Shown: one piece after another, positions 127 through 22,156 of the stretch | Layout: each line of letters opens with the position of its first letter | Numbering within the stretch: position 1 is the first letter of the stretch | Origin: Spirochaetales bacterium | GTDB taxonomy: Bacteria > Spirochaetota > Spirochaetia > SZUA-6 > JAFGRV01 | DNA: 22,156 bases | Assembly (NCBI GenBank): GCA_016937215.1 | Contig: JAFGWI010000019.1 | Coordinates: 1 to 22,156, forward strand | Direction: 5' to 3' | Made by a program: the position numbers and the translations under genes | Notes under the pieces: generated by a model | Told to the model about the DNA's origin: nothing | Databases searched by the model: none | Seen by the model: the letters and a program-made list of their open reading frames with translations, nothing else

Positions 127-1341
127 TTATTCTTTAAAAAAGTTCAACAGATCAGTTGGTTTTTTATCTTCTTTTTCGTCGATTGATAAGGCGGATATTA
201 ACCAAGGTAGTAATTGACTGTTTTTAAATTCGCTCCAATTCGGACTAAAGGGCTCTGGGAATTGAAGAAAATCCTCCTGTGGAATTTTGTCTAAAAGCCG
301 GTGATTGTAATTGGGTAAGACCTTTTCGTTTATTACTTTTAAAACCGAGAAACCATTAAAAAAACCACCTGCCTCGGATAATCTTTTTTGATAGCTGGAT
401 TTTAATATCATTTCCTGAGATTCAATGGATAAATACCACTTTAAAAAATGTTTGGCCCCTTCTTTGTTCTTGGCTTGCAAGGGAATGCCAGCAGCGATGA
501 TATCGTCGCCGATGAATATTTTTTCATTTCTCGATAGCCAGCGAAAATCGAGGTTGTTGAGCTTTTCTTCAGGTATTTTATATAAGATGGATGAGGGATA
601 CAAATAAAGCCCTAGAGTGTTTTCCAGAATTAGTTGGTAAGGCGGGGCATTGAAATATTTGACCGTGTTGTTGTAAAAGTCATTCAACTTTTGTTCGAGC
701 CGTGTTTGCCAGTTGTTGAAGAAACTGATGCTTTTATCCAGGTTTTCATCGTTCCAGGTAATGCTATTTACTTTGTTGTAGGAAAAGTGGGCACCGAATA
801 ATTCTGAAATATAATAGAAGATTTCCTGATTATGAACAGGGGAGTAGCCTATTGATTGATACCTATTGTTTTTCATCTGATTGAGCTTGATGCTGTCATC
901 GATAAGCTTATCGATGGAATAAAACATCTCTGGAATCGTGATTTGATTGTTGCTTTGGCTGAAAAAAACGGTTGGCAGGGTGAAGTTGAGCGGTAAAGCG
1001 CGGAGCTCGTTGTTTATCTGACCTAATTTTTTGAGTCCTTGATAGAATTCCTTGTTTATTTCCCCTGATTCCGGAATTAAATCGTTGATTTTTTCAAATT
1101 TGAGCAAATTCTGATGTTCCAGCACGGTATTGCTGATTATCAGATCTGGCTGGTTTTGCTTGTCCATTTCTGTTATGGGGTTTTTGCTGTAAATTATTTT
1201 TAGAATTCGGCTATTCTGGTTTTTATGGTATAGGTCACTGTAGGCCAATAAACTGGGCCTGTTGGTAACAACGGTTATTTCCTGAGATACCTGACAACCG
1301 GATAGAATCAAGCTAAAGATCAAAATAATGTGCCATTTCAT
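127..1341 (-). CDS. Putative substrate-binding lipoprotein (family-1 ABC solute-binding-protein-like), 404 aa
   Basis: N-terminal signal peptide with lipobox (MKWHIILIFSLILSGC). The C-terminal segment EGAKHFLKWYLSIESQEM resembles the conserved A.FidFLls.EaQ motif of family-1 solute-binding proteins. No ATPase or permease is visible downstream inside the window, so any operon would continue past position 1. Confidence 0.45.
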   Translation of the reverse strand: MKWHIILIFSLILSGCQVSQEITVVTNRPSLLAYSDLYHKNQNSRILKIIYSKNPITEMDKQNQPDLIISNTVLEHQNLLKFEKINDLIPESGEINKEFYQGLKKLGQINNELRALPLNFTLPTVFFSQSNNQITIPEMFYSIDKLIDDSIKLNQMKNNRYQSIGYSPVHNQEIFYYISELFGAHFSYNKVNSITWNDENLDKSISFFNNWQTRLEQKLNDFYNNTVKYFNAPPYQLILENTLGLYLYPSSILYKIPEEKLNNLDFRWLSRNEKIFIGDDIIAAGIPLQAKNKEGAKHFLKWYLSIESQEMILKSSYQKRLSEAGGFFNGFSVLKVINEKVLPNYNHRLLDKIPQEDFLQFPEPFSPNWSEFKNSQLLPWLISALSIDEKEDKKPTDLLNFFKE

Positions 1342-1563
1342 CGAAGCTACTCTACTCGATGGAACTGTGTGCTGTCAAGCTTTCGTTAGTATTGCGGCAG
1401 GGCAAGGTTGTGAAATGGTTTCATGCCCTAATTAAGAGGTCTTGATGGATGTGTTGTCTCCGGGGTTAAAAACAGGGGCGGAACAAGGGGGTTGTGCGAG
1501 GGCTTTGGTTTTTGGCTTGAAAAAAAAGCACCTGGGTTTGAAGTGTTAGGGATAGGAGGCATG

Positions 1564-1735
1564 GCTTGCTATTTTTTCAAAAATGGCAAGCCAAAGCGTT
1601 TTATGCCGGATAATTTCCGGCATAAAACCTTCGGAGCGCCAGCGGAGTGCCGGATAGCCCGACCTGCCATGCCCCTGGGCGGCAGGTAACACCCAAAAAC
1701 AAGAGGAGGGCTGGCTTCTGGTTTCAACTTTTTTT
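1564..1735 (+). ncRNA. Candidate structured RNA/regulatory element, copy A (paralogue of 13279-13397)
   Basis: Hairpin gcttgc-N16-gcaagc (1564-1591) whose loop is the AT palindrome gctattttttcaaaaatggc. Hairpin atgccgg-ataattt-ccggcat (1603-1623). cttcgg (UUCG-type) followed by gagcgccagcggag (1629-1647). Hairpin cctgcc-N12-ggcagg (1663-1686). T7 run at 1729-1735. The first roughly 85 nt align nearly base-for-base with 13279-13365. Overlapping ORFs on both strands (1492..1689, 1546..1800) are judged spurious. Confidence 0.3.
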
Positions 1736-3246: not shown

Positions 3247-3277
3247 CAGAAATGCTTTGCATTTATTGCTTGGTGGA

Positions 3278-3389
3278 GTGAATTTTCATTGGCATTCACT
3301 TTTTGACGTGAATGCTCATTGGCATTCACTTTTTGACGTGAATGCTCATTGGCATTCACTTTTTGACGTGAATGCTCATTGGCATTCAC
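3278..3389. repeat. Tandem array of four 30-bp units, each carrying the palindrome GTGAATGC-TCATTG-GCATTCAC (REP-like); the first copy has a degenerate left arm (gtgaattt)
   Basis: Read directly from the sequence. Arms gtgaatgc at 3308, 3338 and 3368; arms gcattcac at 3292, 3322, 3352 and 3382; constant loop tcattg; constant inter-unit spacer tttttgac. A further degenerate palindrome aaatgctttgcattt sits at 3250-3264. The array lies between the stop of the hydrolase gene (3246) and its terminator hairpin (3435-3466), i.e. in its 3'UTR. ORFs 3257..3451 (+) and 3174..3506 (-) are translation artefacts of this repeat. Confidence 0.9.
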
Positions 3390-3434
3390 TTTTATCATGC
3401 CGTTATGCTGGAAAATATTGGGCAGAAAAGGCTT

Positions 3435-3480
3435 GGTTGTGCCTGTTATGAAAAATAGGCACAACCTGCTTTCTTTTTCG
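3435..3480 (+). terminator. Rho-independent terminator for the 1903-3246 gene
   Basis: Perfect 10-bp stem ggttgtgcct / aggcacaacc with a 12-nt loop, followed by tgctttctttttcg (T-rich tail). Confidence 0.55.
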
Positions 3481-3570
3481 AATGCATTCAAAAAAATAGC
3501 CCCCATTTAGCTAAACAAATACTTCACAGGCAGCTATAATCTGTAAAAATCATCGTTTTTAGAGCTATTT

Positions 3571-4131
3571 TCAATAATAACGTGTTAATTCCACTTCTTC
3601 CAATGCTGTGTAATGAGCGCCGCGTGGTGTGAGGCGTGATTCAAAAAGCACAAACTTGTCTAGGGAGAATTCAAAGGGCTCGTATATGAATTTATCCAGG
3701 GACCCTGCCGGAACCCTGGCGAATTTGTTTCTGGCCAGGGTAATATGGACCTTGGAGTCCCTCTTTTGTTCGGGCCGATAGCCGAGGCCGCTGATTTCCT
3801 TTAGATAGGTCTTCTGGAAATTGATAATATCACTGCTGCCCTGCCCTAGGGGAGTGTAAATCACCCGGGGCTGTCCCTTTGGCGGGAATTGTTCCAGACC
3901 AAGCAGGACGGTATCTATGGGCGGGCGCTTTAAGGCGCTGCTTGTGTTCATTAACGTTATCAAGTCCTGGACCTGTCCAGGGTTCAGTTCACCGAAAAAA
4001 TGCAGGGTAATGTGAAGCCCCTTGGGTTGGACTGGTTTTAGACCTCGGTAATTACTTTTGAGAAACTCAAAATAGGGTTCAAGGGCTTCAAGGGCCTTGT
4101 CCGGTAATGATAATGCGGCAAATATTCTCAT
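3571..4131 (-). CDS. thpR: RNA 2',3'-cyclic phosphodiesterase / 2'-5' RNA ligase (2H phosphoesterase family)
   Basis: Two HxT/S motifs typical of LigT/ThpR (HITLHFFGE and HITLARN); 186 aa. The stop of the upstream recO overlaps its start by 4 bp (ATGA). Confidence 0.8.
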   Translation of the reverse strand: MRIFAALSLPDKALEALEPYFEFLKSNYRGLKPVQPKGLHITLHFFGELNPGQVQDLITLMNTSSALKRPPIDTVLLGLEQFPPKGQPRVIYTPLGQGSSDIINFQKTYLKEISGLGYRPEQKRDSKVHITLARNKFARVPAGSLDKFIYEPFEFSLDKFVLFESRLTPRGAHYTALEEVELTRYY

Positions 4132-6228: not shown

Positions 6229-7359
6229 ATGCTGGAGAAATTGACTTTTAAGGAACATAACCGAATTAAAAATTTGCCGAAATTGCATTTGCCCAAGGAT
6301 TTCGGTTATAATGCTTTTTCGTTTCTGGTGCTGGGCCTGTTTTTGGCTGCCGGAATCGTGATTCAAAACCTGGCCGTTGGTGAATTGGAATCGGAGGTGA
6401 TTCTGGCTGTCGTTCTGGGCACTTTTATGTGCGGCGGAATTTTGTACCTTGTTCCCATGTGGATCGCGGTGATTCAGTTTTCCATATTGGCCTGGGTTGG
6501 CCTTTATGTGGGAGTCGGCGGGAATATTTATCCCTTGTTCGGATTTCTGGTAGCTGCCTTTTTGTTTTCATCCTGCTTTCAACTGGTTCAGCATTGGGAC
6601 AAGGTAGTGATTCTGCGTTTCGGCAAATTCAGAAAAGCCAGAGGGCCAGGCTTGTTTTTGCTTTTTCCGATTATCGACCGTGTGGCTGCTTTTGTGGATA
6701 CCCGGATTCGAGCCACTGATTTCAGCGCTGAAAAAACTCTCACAGCAGATACGGTTCCTGTTCATGTGGACGCGCTGGCTTTCTGGATGGTTTGGGATGT
6801 GAAAGGGGCTGTGCTTGAGGTGGAGGATTTTGTGGAAGCTGTGGTTCTTTCTGCCCAGACTGCTTTGCGAGACGGCATTGGCAAGCATGAATTGGCCGAT
6901 CTATTGTCTGACCGGGACCAGCTGGGCAAGGAGATTCAGAAAATTCTTGATGCTAAAACAAGCCCCTGGGGCATTACGATTCTATCGATTGAAATTACTG
7001 ATATTATTATTCCCAAGGAACTGGAAGATGCCATGAGCCGACGTGCCCAGGCAGAGAGGGAGCGACAATCCCGGGTAATTCTGGGAACTGCGGAACTGGA
7101 AGTAGCTGATAAATTTCAACAGGCCGCGGAGAAATATAAAGATAATCCTACCGCCCTGCATTTACGCGCCATGAACATGATTTACGAGGGTATACGTAAA
7201 AAAGGCACTATCATGCTTCTGCCATCGAGTGCCCTGGATTCCATGTCTCTTGGCGCCAATCTGGGGGCATTGAATCTGGCCAAGGATTTTCAGCAGGGAA
7301 AGTTGGATGACTCATTTTTGCCTGATGAAGAAAAGGGAAATGGCGAAGCTGAGGATTAG
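6229..7359 (+). CDS. SPFH/band-7 (stomatin/prohibitin-like) membrane protein, 376 aa
   Basis: N-terminal hydrophobic helices. SPFH core VILRFGKF..GPGLFLLFPIIDRV...TADTVPVHVDALAFW...ITILSIEITDIIIPKELEDAMSRRAQAERERQSRVILGTAELE, then a coiled-coil and acidic tail. GGAGGA SD 7 nt before the ATG. The gene starts 11 bp after the GntR stop, so the two form an operon. Internal overlapping ORFs are spurious. Confidence 0.8.
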   Translation: MLEKLTFKEHNRIKNLPKLHLPKDFGYNAFSFLVLGLFLAAGIVIQNLAVGELESEVILAVVLGTFMCGGILYLVPMWIAVIQFSILAWVGLYVGVGGNIYPLFGFLVAAFLFSSCFQLVQHWDKVVILRFGKFRKARGPGLFLLFPIIDRVAAFVDTRIRATDFSAEKTLTADTVPVHVDALAFWMVWDVKGAVLEVEDFVEAVVLSAQTALRDGIGKHELADLLSDRDQLGKEIQKILDAKTSPWGITILSIEITDIIIPKELEDAMSRRAQAERERQSRVILGTAELEVADKFQQAAEKYKDNPTALHLRAMNMIYEGIRKKGTIMLLPSSALDSMSLGANLGALNLAKDFQQGKLDDSFLPDEEKGNGEAED

Positions 7360-7501
7360 GCAATCAACTGGAGGCAAAATGTGATCCATGGCATTGAGTT
7401 GTTTGGGAATTTTTTGGGCGTTGCCTGATAAGCCCGGGACAACAATTCTATATTTGAGTACAAATATTACGAATTGCGAGTTATTTTACTTCGGTGCTGT
7501 G

Positions 7502-7705: not shown

Positions 7706-7832
7706 GTATTTTAAGGTTGTGCAACAACCTCTGCATGGCCGAGCAACAAATCGAAGATTTGTGACAAGGCCCGCCACTTCGGCTTCGCCTTCGAAGGTTA
7801 AGGTGCGGAAGTTATCCGCCCCTTAACGCTTT

Positions 7833-7862
7833 GTTCGACTATTTTTGAAAAAATAGTCGAAC
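7833..7862. promoter_or_regulatory. Perfect 14+14 bp palindrome gttcgactattttt-ga-aaaaatagtcgaac about 120 bp upstream of the ABC operon
   Basis: Read directly. Flanked by near-direct repeats ccttaacgcttt (7821-7832) and ccctaacgctttt (7875-7887). The AT-rich centre ctatttttgaaaaaatag is nearly the reverse complement of the palindrome at the head of element A (1568-1587). Candidate protein operator or element boundary. Confidence 0.5.
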
Positions 7863-7982
7863 ATGGCTTCAATCCCTAACGCTTTTAGCCGGGGTGCTGT
7901 TATTGGCTAGAGAGGCAGGAAGCATATATTCCGCTGACTTGCTTCCATCAAGGAAATCATAGATTTGGAAAAGGAGAGAACG

Positions 7983-13233: not shown

Positions 13234-13278
13234 ATTGGCTATTGTGCTGAATGTGTTAGTGATTGGAGCTGTGAGGAG

Positions 13279-13397
13279 GTTTTTTTCAAAAAACCGACGA
13301 AAAGCTTTTTGCCGCGTTTTTAGCGGCAAAAACTTCGGAGCGAAAGCGGAGCAGTGGAATGAACGGCCCCGGAAGGGTGTTTTTGTGCCGGTTTTTT
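13279..13397 (+). ncRNA. Candidate structured RNA/regulatory element, copy B (paralogue of 1564-1735)
   Basis: Palindrome ggttttttt-c-aaaaaacc (13279-13296). Hairpin ttgccgc-gttttta-gcggcaa (13309-13329). cttcgg + agcgaaagcggag (13333-13351). T6 run at 13392-13397. Same order and spacing as copy A, with compensatory changes in the 7-bp hairpin. Confidence 0.3.
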
Positions 13398-16482: not shown

Positions 16483-17499
16483 TCAAGGTTTGTAAACCTG
16501 TGCTGAGTTTTCAGCCCCGAAGCTGGCCTCCCGTGAGGCGCAAATCATCCAGTCCTCTGCCGAGTTGGAGTCGCTGCTGCCCGGAATACGGCCCATGGAA
16601 CGTGTGGCTGTTGAATCATCGGGGTTAATGGCATCTTCGGGCCGAATTTCCGTGCTTCCCGATGCCCAGCCATGCTGTTTAAACAATTCTTCGGCCCTTT
16701 CCATGGTTTTGAGGCTGCCAAAGCCGCGGTATTTTTCATCAGACTGGCTCGTGCGGTTTGAATAGACAAGGCCGTCTATCAGCTCGCCTTGGGGAGAGCT
16801 GTACAAGCTAAGGACACCATTATTGGCGCTTAGTCCTGTGCCCTGGGGCAGCCAGAAATCGTAGGCCTGGTGTGAAGAGTCATAACCCTGTGATATTTCG
16901 GGGCTTTGGATTTCGTTTATTTCTTCGGGGATTCCCTGGGGTTTGGTGTGTAACAGCAGGAAATCGTTGGCTAGAAGTTCCATTGCCGGGAAAACAAAGC
17001 GTTGGTCCCAGTTGTTTCGGGTTCCTTCAAAAAAACAGAGCCCGCCGATATTTCCCGCTTCGAGCAAGCGAATTTCCACCAGATCGGGGTGGGTCGAGCT
17101 GCCCTGGGTCGTGAATTCATTAATCAGGGCTTTGGGGAGCCTGGGATTATAGCCGTAAAAAGCGGCAAGAAGGTCCTGGCTGTTGCCTTGAACGTCATTA
17201 ACCCTGAGGCGCAGAGTGTATTCCTGGCCGGGTATTTGCCCGGTAGTGCTGATGGTCACTGATTGCTTCTCCATCTCTATGCCACTCACTTCGAGTTCCG
17301 GCTCAAAGCTGATATCTTCAGCTGTTAGTTCAATGTTTTCGTCAAAGCTCAGAGTCAGCCCTTTGGGGCTGTTGGAAAAATCCTGGAGCTGGGGAGGGTT
17401 CAGGTCCACCTTTGCCTCGGAGGTTTCAAAGGGCGGGGGAGTGCAGCAGGCCAGAAAGGCCGCTGTGAGGATGTAAATAAGGGTGCTTTTTTGAATCAT
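16483..17499 (-). CDS. Lipoprotein with lamin-tail-domain (LTD)-like segment, 338 aa
   Basis: Lipobox LTAAFLACC. The segment ALINEFTTQGSSTHPDLVEIRLLEAGNIGGL matches the LTD hallmark (INE...dewVEl.N). Pro/Ser-rich linker after the lipobox. Confidence 0.5.
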   Translation of the reverse strand: MIQKSTLIYILTAAFLACCTPPPFETSEAKVDLNPPQLQDFSNSPKGLTLSFDENIELTAEDISFEPELEVSGIEMEKQSVTISTTGQIPGQEYTLRLRVNDVQGNSQDLLAAFYGYNPRLPKALINEFTTQGSSTHPDLVEIRLLEAGNIGGLCFFEGTRNNWDQRFVFPAMELLANDFLLLHTKPQGIPEEINEIQSPEISQGYDSSHQAYDFWLPQGTGLSANNGVLSLYSSPQGELIDGLVYSNRTSQSDEKYRGFGSLKTMERAEELFKQHGWASGSTEIRPEDAINPDDSTATRSMGRIPGSSDSNSAEDWMICASREASFGAENSAQVYKP

Positions 17500-17686
17500 G
17501 GGTGACTCCTTGTGCTATAAAGTGGCTTTAAAAGCCCTGTTTTTTTGCTGACCCCTTCTCTGAGCCAGGCAGCTGGTTTTCAATCCCCTAGGGAATAGGA
17601 AGCAGGCAAGCTTGTTTTTCAAAACAAACGCAGCCAGCAACAACCATGCTGGCCAAAGCTGACAAGCGCAATCAGGCTGCATGGAT

Positions 17687-17744
17687 ATAGTGAATCCCAA
17701 TGAGGATTCACGTGGACATAGTGAATCCCAATGAGGATTCACGT
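17687..17744. repeat. Two tandem 27-bp units (31-bp period) each containing the palindrome GTGAATCC-CAATGA-GGATTCAC
   Basis: Read directly. atagtgaatcccaatgaggattcacgt appears at 17687-17713 and again at 17718-17744. Read on the minus strand it is GTGAATCC-TCATTG-GGATTCAC, the same loop and arm family as the 3278-3389 array. Located in the divergent region between the LTD lipoprotein gene and the Crp/Fnr-like gene. Confidence 0.85.
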
Positions 17745-18082
17745 CACCGAGCAGGAAAGGCGAAGCATTAATGACCAGAGGTCGTAAAACCCTAAAAAAA
17801 CAAAAGTGATTTTCCCGTTGAAAAAAGGCTTCTCAGTGCCAAAAGATTTTAATGCACTATTCCGATAATCATCAGGGGTCCAAGGGTTTTCACTTTGCCG
17901 TTCCCATAAGTATTAATACCCTTGAAATGTCATCCTGCTTTGGGTTTTTTTTATCTTTTTTGTCTACTTTTTTTAAAAAAGCTGAGTTACATTGTAAAAG
18001 GCTTTGAAAGATATTTTTTTCGTTACCATTGCTGCTTGTATTGGTTATAGGGTAAAATCCCCAAAAGAAAGAGGAGTTTTAA

Positions 18083-18703
18083 ATGTCTGATCCAACCTTG
18101 TTCAAGAATTTTGGTCTTCAAGTGCCCAAGGGTGAAACCATTTTCAAAGAAAATGAAGAAGGCAGTAAAATGTACATCATTCAGGAAGGAAAAGTCAGGA
18201 TTTCCAAGAATATCCACGGCAAGGAACATGAACTGGCGGTTTTGATCAAGGGTGAGTTTTTCGGCGAAATGGCCATTGTGACCCAGGAAAAGCGAACGGC
18301 CAGTGCCTCGGCCCTGGAGGATACTTCGCTTCTTTCCTTTGACCGCGAGGGCTTTGCCAGCATGATCAACAAGAACGCCAAAATCGCCTTGAACATTATT
18401 GAAAAACTTTGCCGGCGCTTGCAGGCAGCCAATCAGCAGATCAAGGCCATGGCTCCGCGGAACCTAAAAGGGATGATCGCCCTGAGCCTGTACTATGACT
18501 TTAAAAATGCCGACGGCAAAATGGTCTCCTATTCCAAAAGCCTTGAGGAGATATCCCTGAACCTTCAGCTGCCCTTGCAGGATATCAAGGATCAGGTGGA
18601 AGGAATGATCAAAAGCGGGATTTTAAAGCTGGAGAATGACCAACTGATTCTGCTGAACAGCCCTGGCCTGGATGACATCGCCGACGATGTTGTTAAACGA
18701 TAA
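18083..18703 (+). CDS. Crp/Fnr-family regulator (cNMP-binding domain plus C-terminal winged-helix-like region), 206 aa
   Basis: cNMP-binding beta-roll: YIIQEGKVRISKNIHGKEHELAVLIKGEFFGEMAI...RTASASALEDTSLL. C-terminal SLEEISLNLQLPLQDIKDQVEGMIKSGIL resembles an HTH. AGAGGAG SD 8 nt before the ATG. Confidence 0.65.
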   Translation: MSDPTLFKNFGLQVPKGETIFKENEEGSKMYIIQEGKVRISKNIHGKEHELAVLIKGEFFGEMAIVTQEKRTASASALEDTSLLSFDREGFASMINKNAKIALNIIEKLCRRLQAANQQIKAMAPRNLKGMIALSLYYDFKNADGKMVSYSKSLEEISLNLQLPLQDIKDQVEGMIKSGILKLENDQLILLNSPGLDDIADDVVKR

Positions 18704-18920
18704 AAAGGGCCTTCGCCGACTGCGCCTTCGGTTCTATAATATTCTTGATCAGAAGGTGGGGCGGGAGAAAGCAGTGCTTCGCCGGACTATTGGGGAGATC
18801 GAGAAGCTTTTGGCTGGCAGGAAGTGAAGGGCTTGTTATCCTCTATAGATTTGAGCTGATTTGACAGAGCATTTTGGGAACGATCAATAAGAACCGACGT
18901 TTTTTTCAAGCCGCTAAACC

Positions 18921-19997
18921 CTAATCCTCTACCACTGCGTCGATCACCCCGCCGGCCAGAACCAGGTCGTCCTGGTACACAACGGCATACTGACCGGGTG
19001 TAATGGCCCTCTGCTCCTTGTCAAAACGCAGTATGCAGGACCTCTCATCCTGGGGAATCACCATGCAGGGCGCCGGGTTGTGGCGGTAACGGATCTTGGC
19101 CTGGGCCCGGAAGGGCTCTGAAAAAGAGGCCATGCCTATCATGTTGAGGCTCACCACCTTGAGGCCGCCCTTGAGGAGTTCCGCGTCAGTACCCACCACT
19201 ACCTGGTTGGTCTTGGGCAGAATATCCACCACATAAAGAGGCTCGCTATAGGCAACCCCCAGCCCCCGGCGCTGGCCGATTGTGTAATGAAAATAACCTT
19301 CATGCTCGCCCATGACCTCGCCCCGGCTGTTGATGATCTGGCCGGTGCCTACATCGATATCCAGAAGGTCCTCGTAATCACCAGCGTAAAAATCCTGGCT
19401 TTCCTTTTTTTCCACTGCCTTGAGCCCCAGTTCACGGGCCATGGCCTTAATCTCCTCTTTCCGGAAAGCGCCCAGGGGAAAACGAACCCCCGAAAGCTGA
19501 TCCTGGGTGAGCAGGGCCAGAAAATAGGACTGGTCCTTTTTGTCATCCAGCCCACGTTTGAGCAAATAGCGCCCTGAAGCGGTATCCTGCTCCACCCGAG
19601 CGTAGTGGCCCGTGGCAAAAAGGTCGAACTGGACACCCGATTCACGGGCCTTTTCCAGCATCAGGTGAAATTTCATCTGGTGATTGCAGCGCACGCAGGG
19701 ATTAGGTGTCCGCCCCTGTTTGTATTCGTCGCGGAAATAGTCCAGCACCTGGCTTGAATATTCCTTTGAAAGGTCCACCACGTGATAGGGAATGCCCAGC
19801 TCCTTGCTGAGAGCCCTGGCATCCTCGATATCCTCGGCCTCATCAGGCCCGAAACAAGCAGAACGCTTTACATTCACATCGTAGGAATCATCCCATATTT
19901 TCATGGTCAATCCAATGACCTCATGACCCTCTTTTTGCAGTAAATGAGCGGTTACCGAGGAATCCACCCCGCCGCTTAAACCAACAGCTATTTTCAT
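18921..19997 (-). CDS. mnmA: tRNA-specific 2-thiouridylase MnmA
   Basis: PP-loop SGGVDSS and the catalytic Cys region NPCVRCN; conserved throughout. The ORF-track start at 20015 is a TTG. The ATG-ATG pair at 20000-19995 follows GAGGA, and the second ATG (19997, 4-nt spacer; MKIAVGLSGGVDSS) is taken as the start. Confidence 0.9.
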   Translation of the reverse strand: MKIAVGLSGGVDSSVTAHLLQKEGHEVIGLTMKIWDDSYDVNVKRSACFGPDEAEDIEDARALSKELGIPYHVVDLSKEYSSQVLDYFRDEYKQGRTPNPCVRCNHQMKFHLMLEKARESGVQFDLFATGHYARVEQDTASGRYLLKRGLDDKKDQSYFLALLTQDQLSGVRFPLGAFRKEEIKAMARELGLKAVEKKESQDFYAGDYEDLLDIDVGTGQIINSRGEVMGEHEGYFHYTIGQRRGLGVAYSEPLYVVDILPKTNQVVVGTDAELLKGGLKVVSLNMIGMASFSEPFRAQAKIRYRHNPAPCMVIPQDERSCILRFDKEQRAITPGQYAVVYQDDLVLAGGVIDAVVED

Positions 19998-20015
19998 CAT
20001 GTCCTCACAGATCAA

Positions 20016-20350
20016 GTTGATCGGGTCTCAAAACCCTCCATGCCGTGCCAGACCCCGGGACGCGGCAAAAACCGGTTGTCAATAATACTCTTTTTGGGCT
20101 GTTTGGAAAAGGGGGCCGGCATACTCTCGTGCCATTTGCGGGCTTCTTTTTTTTGGGCATTACCTGGTGAAAAGGCTAATTGACACAGCTTCCCGGAACC
20201 CGAACGAACAGCCCCCAAAACAGCGGCACCAGGCCCGGGCTTTCCGCTCCAACTCCTCGCGCCGCTGAATAAACGGAAGCTTCCGGATCTCTCTCCTTTC
20301 TCACGAGCCCCGCGGCCTTGCCCCGGCGCGGCGCTGCGGGGTTTCCGCTT
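20016..20350 (-). other. GC-rich non-coding island upstream of mnmA: candidate structured RNA or leader (identity unresolved)
   Basis: Markedly more G+C-rich than the surrounding sequence, with runs such as ccccggg, gcgccgc and cccgggc. The only ORF (20012..20353) translates to low-complexity RG/PG-rich text. Contains stems, e.g. ccccgcgg...ctgcgggg and the perfect palindrome cggaagcttccg. Strand assigned only by position relative to mnmA. Confidence 0.25.
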
Positions 20351-20755
20351 CAATCCCTAATGCGGTGAAAGGCGGGCTGTGGCCGGAATTGGCGCTGGGC
20401 ATAATCGATCCAGCTGTCTTCCTGTATGGCATGAAAGCTGGTGCTCAGCGCTATGTTCAGGGTATCACCTGTATTTTGATCCAGAACAATGTTTTTTTGG
20501 CCCGGAATGTCTGACACAGGGAGCCATGCTTTGAAATTCAGCATTCAGGTTAATATTTTTATGAAGCTGAGCCTCGTGCTTCAAGCTTTGAAGATGCTCC
20601 TCTTCCTCAAAAAGCTTTTCATCATAGGGGGCCGCCCGCGCCAGCTTCATCAAGCTCTTAACAGTGTTGAAATGAGCAGTTAAATCGCATGCCCCCCCTA
20701 AGATTACAGGATTTTTTAGTGTGAAACCCGGAAATTTGGTCTTTAGAGTGGCCAT
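20350..20755 (-). pseudogene. Small gene (about 135 aa if merged) split into two frames at a T7/A7 homopolymer (20492-20498)
   Basis: ORFs 20465..20755 and 20350..20544 are adjacent, same strand, in different frames, and overlap exactly over the homopolymer. A 1-nt indel would fuse them (MATLKTKFPGF...HSGP | KNIVLDQNTGDTLNIALSTSFHAIQED...). Could be a sequencing error, a true pseudogene, or slippage. Confidence 0.3.
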
Positions 20756-20825
20756 AACCGTCTCCTGTCGGGTTAAAATACACTAAGCTATGGAAATCAG
20801 GGGGCAAGAGATAAAGGATTTGAAG

Positions 20826-20859
20826 AAAAAAAAAGAGGATATCCCGAGGGGATATCCTC
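20826..20859 (-). terminator. Rho-independent terminator of the repeat-protein gene
   Basis: Perfect 11-bp stem gaggatatccc / gggatatcctc with loop gag, immediately followed on the minus strand by U9 (A9 at 20826-20834 on the plus strand). Confidence 0.7.
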
Positions 20860-21094
20860 GTGGTGATTAAATAATATCACCCAAAATGGTGATTAATCAT
20901 TGATTATTCGATTACTCGGGTAAAAATTTGTTCCGCACCGGAGATTAGATGATAGGGTGTATTTATAAATAAAGCTATTTCATTATATCCTTCTAATTCC
21001 GGACTAATGCTACCGTCATAGTCCTCATTGTAAATCTTCGAACATTCAGAGTGTCTCTTAAGCATAAATTTTCGTCAGTAAGTTCTGCTTGTGT

Positions 21095-22156
21095 TTAGTT
21101 ATTCATCATAGTAGCGCAAAAAACGATAAAATTTTGAGCCGGGTATTCGATCCCATTTATTGTAACGGTCCCAACAGCTGTATCTGTGTAGATAGTATCA
21201 CTCGTAACATCATAATTAGCCACAATCGTTGAAATGGTCGTTGAGTCAAAAGTAATAACCAAATTTGCGGTTATGGTTCTGGTCGTGTCTTCATTAAAGG
21301 TTTCTGAAAGTGTTCCGTTTACTGAAAATGGATGTGGTGAAGTTGGTAAGGGTGTATTTGTGAATGTTGTTATTTGTCCATTATCAGAGATGGGTGTTTT
21401 CTCAATGGTGGGATCCTGATCTCCAGCAGCCCAGCTGAGCATCATTGCTGTGAATAAAAAATTATATCCTATTTCTTCATTGTCTATTTCAGGATCTGGT
21501 GTTACTTCAGGGTCGTTTGAAATATTTTGAATCAAATAAGTATAAAATGCCTGAGCGTTTATTTCAACATCGTTTATAATAATTGTACCGACTGCAATAG
21601 GATCGGCTATGTTCGAATTGTCATAATCAAATGACCCGTTGATTGTGAATAAATTGGGGTCATTGGTGAAAATGAAATTGAAAGTTATATTTCCGTTTAT
21701 TTCTGTGCCAGTTGATAATAAATTTCCGCTTGCCTTATAATCTGGTTCTTCTGAATTGTATACAGCATTATTTAAAGTTGCATTCATCACGCCATCACTA
21801 TTGCTAGCTGAAACTGTTGTGCCATCAGGGTCAGTGATCTGTCGATAAAGATTTGTGCATACCTCATAAGCATATAATTCTGTTTCTTCATTTAACACCG
21901 GGATTTCAGTTACTTCAGGTTCCGGTGTCACTTCAGGTTCCGGTGTCACTTCAGGTTCTGGTGTCACTTCAGGTTCTGGTGTCACTTCAGGTTCTGGTGT
22001 CACTTCAGGTTCCGGTGTCACTTCAGGTTCTGGTGTCACTTCAGGTTCCGGTGTTACTTCAGGTTCCGGTGTTACTTCAGGTTCCGGTGTTACTTCAGGT
22101 TCCGGTGTTACTTCAGGTTCCGGTGTTACTTCAGGTTCTGGTGTTACTTCAGGTTC
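21095..22156 (-). CDS. Secreted/surface repeat protein, 5'-truncated by the window edge: N-terminal (TPEPEV)n linker then two related Thr/Asn/Ile-rich beta-type domains
   Basis: The reading frame is open to the end of the window. The M at 22039 in the ORF track is a GTG (Val) codon inside the repeat, not a start. The C-terminal part contains an internal duplication ([22 protein letters not shown] vs [22 protein letters not shown]). Confidence 0.7.
21911..22156. repeat. At least 13 tandem copies of the 18-bp unit ggttcYggtgtYacttca (encoding TPEPEV on the minus strand), continuing past the window end
   Basis: Read directly. Units differ only at two Y positions, which fall on third codon positions (ccg/cca Pro, gtg/gta Val). 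Confidence 0.9.

Follow-up and report, generated by a model that had tools for sequence, protein, structure and literature searches.

A probable Flavo-1 copy in the GC-rich spacer upstream of mnmA, and related repeats on the same contig of an uncultured Spirochaetales bacterium

What is the GC-rich non-coding sequence that lies directly upstream of mnmA, the gene of the tRNA 2-thiouridine synthase, in an uncultured Spirochaetales bacterium? The sequence belongs to contig JAFGWI010000019.1, and the window analysed here is this entire contig of 22,156 nt, taken from a metagenome-assembled genome (MAG). A first reading made from the letters alone (the original prediction) had described positions 20016-20350 as a GC-rich island with multiple stems and no credible open reading frame (ORF), a candidate structured RNA for which RNase P RNA, a leader or the remnant of a foreign gene had been considered. 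The GC-rich core of the island, 20232-20363 on the minus strand, is very probably a copy of the Flavo-1 motif (RF01705), as judged from sequence and pairing. The best explanation overall, to which a probability of roughly 0.8 is given, is that this Flavo-1 copy is a dispersed repeat, one of about five on the contig.

Flavo-1 is an intergenic repeat that forms hairpins and occurs in multiple copies in Bacteroidetes, a few members being recorded from Spirochaetes (PMC2864571); its original alignment and consensus structure (SS_cons) accompany Weinberg et al. 2010, Genome Biol 11:R31, as supplementary data (PMC2864571). The alignment comprises two subtypes, with members of 58-149 nt in length, among them one of 132 nt from Treponema denticola, and the type 1 consensus reads GCGUUAGGGAUW-GNAGC-GGAAA ... 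GAU-UGNAGCGGAUAGCCCGACC (PMC2864571). The taxonomic range fits the island, given a Spirochaetales MAG as host and a T. denticola row in the published alignment. The element and its parts in the island are the following.

20232-20363, minus strand: Flavo-1-type element, 132 nt, GC 0.659, the GC-rich core of the island.
20341-20363, minus strand: conserved 5' strand GCAUUAGGGAUUGAAGCGGAAAC, with the 5' halves of helices P1 (GGG), P2 (UU), P3 (GC) and P4 (AAC) and the loop residues GAA and GGA.
20331-20340, minus strand: inner 5' strand CCCGCAGCGC, with the 5' halves of P5 (CC), P6 (CGC) and P7 (CGC), placed by the alignment to covariance model R2 (see below).
20266-20330, minus strand: apical insertion of 65 nt, GC 0.63 (64 nt in the R2 alignment), where published members have a short hairpin.
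20274-20285, no strand assigned: 12-nt palindrome CGGAAGCTTCCG, a potential small apical hairpin CGGA-AGCU-UCCG.
20232-20265, minus strand: conserved 3' strand GCGGCGCGAGGAGUUGGAGCGGAAAGCCCGGGCC, with the 3' halves of P7 to P1, located by nhmmer and R2; it includes the string that had been likened to the P4 helix of RNase P RNA.

The lead came from a comparison of the whole window with Rfam. Nothing was found at the curated (gathering) thresholds; the best match of the window under permissive settings was Flavo-1, whose full model (1-76) aligned to 20229-20371 on the minus strand with 28.6 bits (E = 0.001 on 1 kb, E = 0.022 on the window) and with 84 nt skipped at the apex. This match rests on an internal direct repeat, CGGGCTTTCCGCTCCAACTCCT / CGGGGTTTCCGCTTCAATCCCT, whose two halves are 101 nt apart from start to start, and taken by itself it is suggestive and not convincing. 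The shortfall against the curated score is explained by the skipped 84-nt apical stretch and by the type 1 lead GCAUUAG, which a consensus dominated by type 2 treats as an insertion. The search of Rfam in both orientations that had been proposed with the original prediction was thus negative at the curated threshold, a result judged to be a false negative for Flavo-1.

The lead was put to three tests against the published family, none of which was trained on sequence from the window. In the first, nhmmer profiles of the two conserved strands were built from 26 published type 1 rows (consensus of the 5' strand GCGUUAGGGAUWGNAGCGGAAA, of the 3' strand GAUUGNAGCGGAWAGCCCGACC). The top window match of the 5'-strand profile was 20367-20340 on the minus strand (22.6 bits, E = 1.6e-6), and in 1.22 Mb of fetched loci its sole match was to the island's own copies in L161 and L162. 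The top window match of the 3'-strand profile was 20256-20236 (11.6 bits, E = 0.007), on the same strand and in the right order; by itself this match is not significant at database scale, a score of 12.0 bits being reached also in L039.

In the second test, covariance model R2 was built from 10 published Bacteroidetes rows of the 'CCCACAG...GCGAGGAC' subgroup, mostly from Flavobacterium johnsoniae and F. psychrophilum; this training alignment has 18 pairs, 95.8% of them paired, with covariation above that of 500 of 500 shuffles. The model matched 20371-20229 on the minus strand over its full length (1-85) with 57.7 bits (E = 1.5e-13), without a non-canonical pair and with an apical insertion of 64 nt; the full-length score was obtained in default-filter runs on the window and on L161. 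Within about 1.2 Mb of other loci, R2 yielded only matches of 23.6, 13.9 and 13.6 bits, all of them in two MAGs of Lewinellaceae (Bacteroidetes), and these look like genuine type 1 elements. They lie at 6836-6935 on the plus strand of L069 and at 1099-1187 (plus) and 3840-3923 (minus) of L062, are Flavo-1-like of type 1 (UUGCGUGAGGGAUGGGAGG...CCGGACAGCCCGGCCC) and have a GC content of 65-70%, so that the motif has GC-rich versions beyond Flavobacteriia too.

In the third test the pairing was written out. The conserved strands, GCAUUAGGGAUUGAAGCGGAAAC-CCCGCAGCGC on the 5' side and GCGGCGCGAGGAGUUGGAGCGGAAAGCCC on the 3' side, are joined by seven short helices whose register is that of the published SS_cons (P1 GGG/CCC, P2 UU/AA, P3 GC/GC, P4 AAC/GUU, P5 CC/GG, P6 CGC/GCG and P7 CGC/GCG), all 18 of the 18 pairs being Watson-Crick. 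The internal loops between the helices are rich in purines (GAA/GGA and GGA/GGA), as in the Flavo-1 family, and the inner 5' strand CCCGCAGCGC is common to the Flavobacterium 'CCCACAG...GCGAGGAC' subgroup. Judged from these strands, the island is placed in type 1 (GCGUUAGGG...AGCCCGACC), in the subgroup of F. johnsoniae and F. psychrophilum. All testable features that define Flavo-1 were found, with the exception of the curated Rfam score.

Several observations weigh against the assignment. The Rfam score of 28.6 bits is below the gathering cut-off of 42 bits, and R2 run with its filters off gave only a local match of 21.4 bits, which is attributed to the scoring mode; the E-values of the models built here are rough, the calibration having been shortened. 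In both length and GC content the apical insertion exceeds what is seen in the published members examined, ends of the type seen in miniature inverted-repeat transposable elements (MITEs) were looked for without convincing terminal inverted repeats, direct flanking repeats or target-site duplications being seen, and the mechanism proposed below on the model of REP and ERIC elements is an analogy. Regarding folding, the stems that had been noticed in the island are not stable beyond what its composition gives: there was no excess over shuffled sequence, with z-scores of the minimum free energy (MFE) for the minus and the plus strand of +0.71 and -0.30 (385 nt) and of +0.61 and -0.12 (151-nt core). 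This absence gives no support, yet it does not count against a motif whose short helices are broken by non-canonical loops. Moreover, the MFE structure favours local GC hairpins (-57.1 kcal/mol) over structures with P1-P4 enforced (-53.1 kcal/mol) or P1-P7 enforced (-44.1 kcal/mol). With local hairpins preferred energetically, the Flavo-1 fold is compatible with the sequence and not predicted by energy.

The apical insertion contains the palindrome and most of a local hairpin CCCCGC...GCGGGG (20308-20341), which overlaps P4-P6. No similarity of the insertion to other sequence was found by distant blastn against plasmids and phages or within the contig. The palindrome resembles the tips of the second hairpin in the related elements B and F described below (CCGGAUAAUUUCCGG and GCGGAUAACUUCCGC), a likeness that is without statistical support.

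Regarding composition, the GC maximum of the contig does lie in the island, reaching 0.687 in a 150-nt segment at 20192 and 0.66 in one of 200 nt at 20201; the contig averages 0.443, with a standard deviation of 0.073. The 335 bp as a whole are not exceptional, only about 20190-20400 being so: their GC content is 58.8% versus 54.6% in the adjacent mnmA, the richest 335-nt segment (60.6%) is found inside mnmA, and the remainder outside about 20192-20400 is no richer in GC than mnmA. The peak coincides with the element (20232-20363), and most of the left half of the predicted island (20016-20160) is ordinary spacer with the following promoter candidate.

20082-20109, minus strand: sigma-70-like promoter candidate TTTCCA-16-TATTAT, between the element and mnmA, from a consensus scan (9 of 12 matches).

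The number of sigma-70-like sites in the region was not above that in shuffles, hence the candidate is a weak one.

A GC maximum would also suit the remains of a protein-coding gene, either decayed or of GC-rich foreign origin, and an ORF of 113 aa (20012-20353, minus strand) does span the island; the statement that no credible ORF exists nevertheless holds in substance. The GC content by codon position of this ORF is 0.61/0.57/0.59, i.e. without periodicity, versus 0.65/0.35/0.64 in mnmA. It has no Pfam match, and among 1.84 billion representative proteins (one of the six frames having been searched) it matched only itself. A distant blastn comparison with plasmids and phages gave nothing beyond chance matches of 23-45 nt, and the conserved parts of the island are accounted for base by base by the Flavo-1 model. 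A gene remnant is thus extremely unlikely.

The expectation of a structured-RNA-type element instead of a gene was borne out insofar as the GC-rich core is a full-length copy of Flavo-1, itself a published candidate structured RNA; the specific families that had been named failed. For RNase P RNA, tmRNA, 6S RNA, SRP RNA and riboswitches there was no Rfam match at E <= 10 in the region or at E <= 5 in the window on either strand, and ARAGORN found 0 tRNA or tmRNA genes in the window. The strings quoted earlier are present, GGAGCGGAAAGCCCGGGCC being the reverse complement of 20232-20250 and CCAGGTAATGCC that of 20156-20167, and the perfect 12-nt palindrome cggaagcttccg was confirmed at 20274-20285. 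A housekeeping structured RNA (RNase P, 6S, SRP or tmRNA) too diverged for Rfam would find its argument in the superficial likeness of GGAGCGGAAAGCCCGGGCC to the 5' strand of P4 in bacterial RNase P RNA (AGGAAAGUCCGGGCUCC). This short string is the only likeness, however, and it turns out to be the 3' strand of Flavo-1; the island has neither a match to the RNase P covariance model nor a 3' strand of P4, and its size and architecture are wrong. Together with the missing excess in folding stability, this leaves such an RNA with a practically negligible probability. A CRISPR interpretation was likewise rejected: the lone CRISPR-DR10 match had an E-value of 4.6, no array was present, and the two internal repeats 101 nt apart are both strands of one hairpin. 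A Pfam scan of 20 ORFs of the window also revealed no cas domains.

The island is not the only sequence of its kind on the contig. Box 1, a pattern of the island's 5' strand (GYRTTAGKGATWGRAGS), occurs four times in the window versus 0.01 expected, the pattern having been derived after the copies were seen; an exact 14-mer, TTAGGGATTGAAGC, is common to the island and 7866-7879 in element F, and the other three Box 1 copies each head a composite repeat. Besides the island, four further related or degenerate copies are present on the 22-kb contig, about five in all.

1535-1668, plus strand: element B, with P1-P3 of Flavo-1 around a 90-nt insertion that has two hairpins (R2, 20.1 bits, E = 0.0015).
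7768-7884, minus strand: element F, with the Flavo-1 5' strand (profile E = 6e-4), the same two-hairpin insertion as B and a degenerate 3' strand.
13251-13360, plus strand: element A, of the same composite family (R1, 51.2 bits, E = 3.4e-11).
3380-3487, minus strand: element D, degenerate (R1, 29.5 bits, E = 9e-6).

Covariance model R1 was built from B (1541-1656, plus) and F (7884-7768, minus) only. The composite repeat that it describes is about 110-130 nt long; its parts are the Flavo-1 5' strand, a first hairpin whose loop reads UUUUUUCAAAAA, the linker AAAGCG, another hairpin and CCUUCGGAGCGAAAGCGGAG. The R2 alignment of B and the 3' strand of B, CGGAUAGCCCGACC, which equals the published consensus (3'-strand profile, E = 0.029 at 1651-1665), indicate that the composite family consists of the closing strands of Flavo-1 with extra modules inside; a partial Rfam match to Flavo-1 was also seen in element A (21.2 bits at 13297-13344). 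B and F are 84% identical, and their differences are almost confined to the stems of the two hairpins: both partners have changed in 10 of 25 pairs, with 98% still paired. R1 found no copies in 687 kb of other loci, the nearest relatives included. The island is not a full member of this composite family, as R1 gave it only 7.2 bits (E = 3.3, at 20365-20325 on the minus strand) and its likeness to the family beyond the 5' strand and Box 2 was not significant (z about 1). On its alignment to the published type, the island appears to be the most canonical of the Flavo-1-derived copies on the contig.

A further conserved string, Box 2 (pattern CAGGYAAYRCCCAAAAA), was found three times in the window versus 0.02 expected, this pattern too having been derived after the copies were seen. 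Each copy lies downstream of a Flavo-1-type element and is co-oriented with it.

1683-1699, plus strand: Box 2 copy.
7411-7427, minus strand: Box 2 copy.
20150-20166, minus strand: Box 2 copy of the island, CAGGUAAUGCCCAAAAA, including most of the string CCAGGUAAUGCC quoted in the original prediction.
20163-20233, minus strand: hairpin after the island element, read from the sequence, with the arms CCUGGUG (20227-20233) and CACCAGG (20163-20169) and a 57-nt loop.

The Box 2 copy of the island is 19/22 identical to that of B, and none of 300 shuffles scored as well. In two of the three cases the start of Box 2 is the 3' arm of a hairpin that begins directly after the element. Such a hairpin may be a shared feature, since element B has an equivalent one (CCUGCC/GGCAGG), with two examples in total.

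Other repeats were observed on the contig. A possible additional fragment of the repeat family is the Box-1-like string CUAGGGGAUUGAAAAC at 17574-17599 on the minus strand; the gene 16483-17499 on this strand starts about 90 nt downstream of it. Tandem arrays of a hairpin unit of 30-31 nt are located at 3269-3390 on the plus strand (CTTTTTGACGTGAATGCTCATTGGCATTCA, about 4 copies) and at 17682-17746 (TGGAYATAGTGAATCCCAATGAGGATTCACG, 2 copies), the latter being an inverted relative of the former. Both contigs of the Logan assemblies described below end at 17725 inside the second array, which suggests that this repeat is dispersed in the genome.

The orientation of the copies to neighbouring genes, according to the ORF map, is mixed: B and the island lie upstream in sense orientation, A and D lie downstream in sense orientation, and F is antisense. 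This matches a report on F. psychrophilum, in which Flavo-1 hits were sense or antisense to transcribed regions or lay outside of them (PMC9723704). The orientations bear on the alternative that the Flavo-1 copy is expressed as a discrete gene of a trans-acting small RNA with its own promoter and 3' end. Rfam labels the family 'Gene; sRNA', Flavo-1 was scored as a probable RNA that is not cis-regulatory (Weinberg 2010, PMC2864571), the purine-rich loops are conserved on one strand only, which argues for a strand-specific function, and a weak 3' end could be provided by a hairpin CAGCGGCGCGAGG...CCUGGUGCCGCUG with UUUU after it. Against these points, the minus strand shows no promoter-like site upstream of the element and no canonical terminator after it, copies of the family occur in all orientations, many of them outside transcribed regions in F. 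psychrophilum (PMC9723704), and about five diverged or degenerate copies in 22 kb are typical of repeats rather than of small RNA genes. A discrete small RNA gene is accordingly regarded as improbable, and the dispersed repeat is preferred.

Does the island then serve mnmA in particular? The gene and its upstream neighbour are as follows.

18921-19997, minus strand: mnmA (tRNA 2-thiouridine synthase), 358 aa, ATG at 19997, with Pfam tRNA_Me_trans domains.
20465-20755, minus strand: orphan ORF of 96 aa upstream of mnmA (hypothetical protein JXR70_01430).

The MnmA protein matches the NCBI entry 'MnmA [Spirochaetales bacterium]' with 100% identity, and a Shine-Dalgarno-like GAGGA precedes the start of the gene. 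The non-coding spacer between this start and the next called ORF is 467 nt long. As 17725-21953 is 100% identical in two independent Logan assemblies (SRR13394436 and SRR13394437), the island is no assembly artefact.

An mnmA-specific cis-regulatory leader (a riboswitch, an attenuator or a protein-binding 5' untranslated region (UTR)) that controls tRNA thiolation would account for the element being directly upstream of the gene and co-oriented with it, and for the length of the spacer. Genome and metagenome contigs scanned with MnmA gave nothing above 50% identity, the closest MnmA proteins in the protein database being 53-59% identical, and the contigs of three homologues (MnmA 55-57% identical) had no upstream sequence related to the island. 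Two relatives with a 57% identical MnmA, L163 and L166, also have long mnmA spacers (390 and 464 nt), which could be counted in favour of a leader; these spacers are, however, AT-rich, without similarity to the island and without an Rfam or R2 match, and they carry a block of their own, GGATAACCGGGTAACTAAAACTGTGGAAAGAGAAA. Conservation of the island upstream of mnmA, which had been named as a check, is therefore absent from the nearest relatives. Furthermore, no cis-regulatory family of Rfam matches, the same motif is present beside unrelated genes, in four other intergenic regions and in various orientations, and the best promoter-like site (20109-20082) lies downstream of the element and would leave it outside the 5' UTR of mnmA. 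A leader of this kind is very unlikely, and the observations point to a dispersed structured repeat instead of an mnmA-specific device.

The block common to the two relatives lies upstream of mnmA, at 5650-5715 in L163 and at 4118-4185 in L166. In this block a terminator hairpin AAAAGGCGGC...GCCGCCTTTT precedes GGATAACCGGGTAACTAAAACTGTGGAAAGAGAAA; Rfam gave no match to the block, which is not related to the island.

Regarding the surroundings of the locus, the 96-aa orphan ORF has no Pfam match and matched only itself among 5.8 billion proteins. It overlaps a 64-aa ORF of another frame (20350-20755, minus strand) around a run of seven A at 20491-20497 and could be a frameshifted or spurious gene; the sequence of the region agrees among three assemblies. 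A weak Rfam match to 'Mu-gpT-DE' at 20753-20802 was dismissed, as it is merely the Shine-Dalgarno sequence and start codon of the 96-aa ORF. A strong intrinsic terminator, GAGGATATCCCCTCGGGATATCCTC followed by nine T, is present at 20835-20859 on the minus strand, downstream of a repeat-protein gene, so that transcripts entering the island region probably have a start of their own upstream of the 96-aa ORF. The ORF at 21095-22156 on the minus strand, which runs off the end of the contig, contains at least 13 tandem 18-nt units that encode TPEPEV repeats and has no Pfam match.

What might a dispersed Flavo-1 copy do at such a site? No published function for Flavo-1 was found in the literature searched. 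A comparison is offered by the ERIC/IRU, REP/BIME and pneumococcal BOX elements, short imperfect palindromes that are found between genes in many copies and in both orientations. They have a modular build with room for internal insertions, and their co-transcribed copies form hairpins that are able to affect the stability or processing of mRNA. When transcribed in the sense of the 96-aa ORF and mnmA, the island element would fold into a long irregular hairpin, whose conserved purine-rich loops would be the likely contact surface for a trans-acting protein. By analogy, the consequences could be those of REP, ERIC and BOX elements: transcripts might be punctuated, their 3' ends protected or stabilised, or processed, and/or an enzyme that copies the element might recognise it. 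Such an action is put forward tentatively, as possible rather than probable.

A more speculative proposal, on balance unlikely, is that Flavo-1 is not a classical small RNA but a structured repeat, mobile or competent for recombination, which spreads inside genomes as well as from one phylum to another and takes up other modules in its apical loop. Compatible with it are the far better fit of the island to a Flavobacterium-based model (57.7 bits) than that of the other Bacteroidetes elements (<= 23.6 bits), the lineage-specific composite family A/B/F/D with stems differing almost only by compensatory changes (10 of 25 pairs), and the third conserved box, CAGGYAAYRCCCAAAAA, after three copies. 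Should the proposal hold, this genome would lend itself to a search for the protein recognising the conserved purine-rich loops.

For annotation, the island means that a GC-rich orphan region beside a housekeeping gene is a copy of a known repeat family that the curated Rfam threshold missed, the Flavo-1 model of Rfam penalising long apical insertions and the minority subtype. Similar islands elsewhere may share this explanation, and reading them as novel riboswitches or housekeeping RNAs should therefore be avoided. For Flavo-1, described in 2010, the contig offers material to decide between an RNA, a single-stranded DNA and a mobile element: about five modular, partly nested derivatives, maintained pairing of the stems and a very close fit to a model derived mainly from Flavobacterium. 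Knowledge of mnmA is unchanged by the identity of the island.

Among known systems, the relation to ERIC, REP and BOX is one of analogy in mechanism and not of membership: there is no sequence similarity, and neither a transposase of the RAYT type nor inverted terminal repeats nor duplicated target sites were observed in this case. The T. denticola member of Flavo-1 (NC_002967.9/1611636-1611767) comes from the same phylum, has the same length of 132 nt and also possesses a long apical domain (GCGAUUGAAGCAGAAAUCC ... AUUGGAGCGGAAAGCGCGG); it is, however, of the other subtype, with a GCG/CGC-like outer stem and without the GCGUUAGGG lead, and the apical sequences are unrelated. The closest likeness is with the type 1 'CCCACAG...GCGAGGAC' subgroup, which has the same 5' and 3' strands, the same P1-P7 register, purine-rich loops and a variable apex; the island element, too, is intergenic, has further copies on its contig and shows no fixed orientation to genes, and the 132 nt of the island are within the range of 58-149 nt. 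The island differs from this subgroup in its score below the Rfam gathering cut-off, in its host, an uncultured Spirochaetales bacterium and not a flavobacterium, in its apex, a 65-nt GC-rich insertion versus about 15 nt (CCU-GACGA-AGG) in the subgroup, and in the innermost pair of P4, which is C-G in the island versus G-C in the subgroup, a compensatory change. On this comparison the island is a previously unrecorded member of the known Flavo-1 family, within which the composite repeats A, B, F and D form a new variety.

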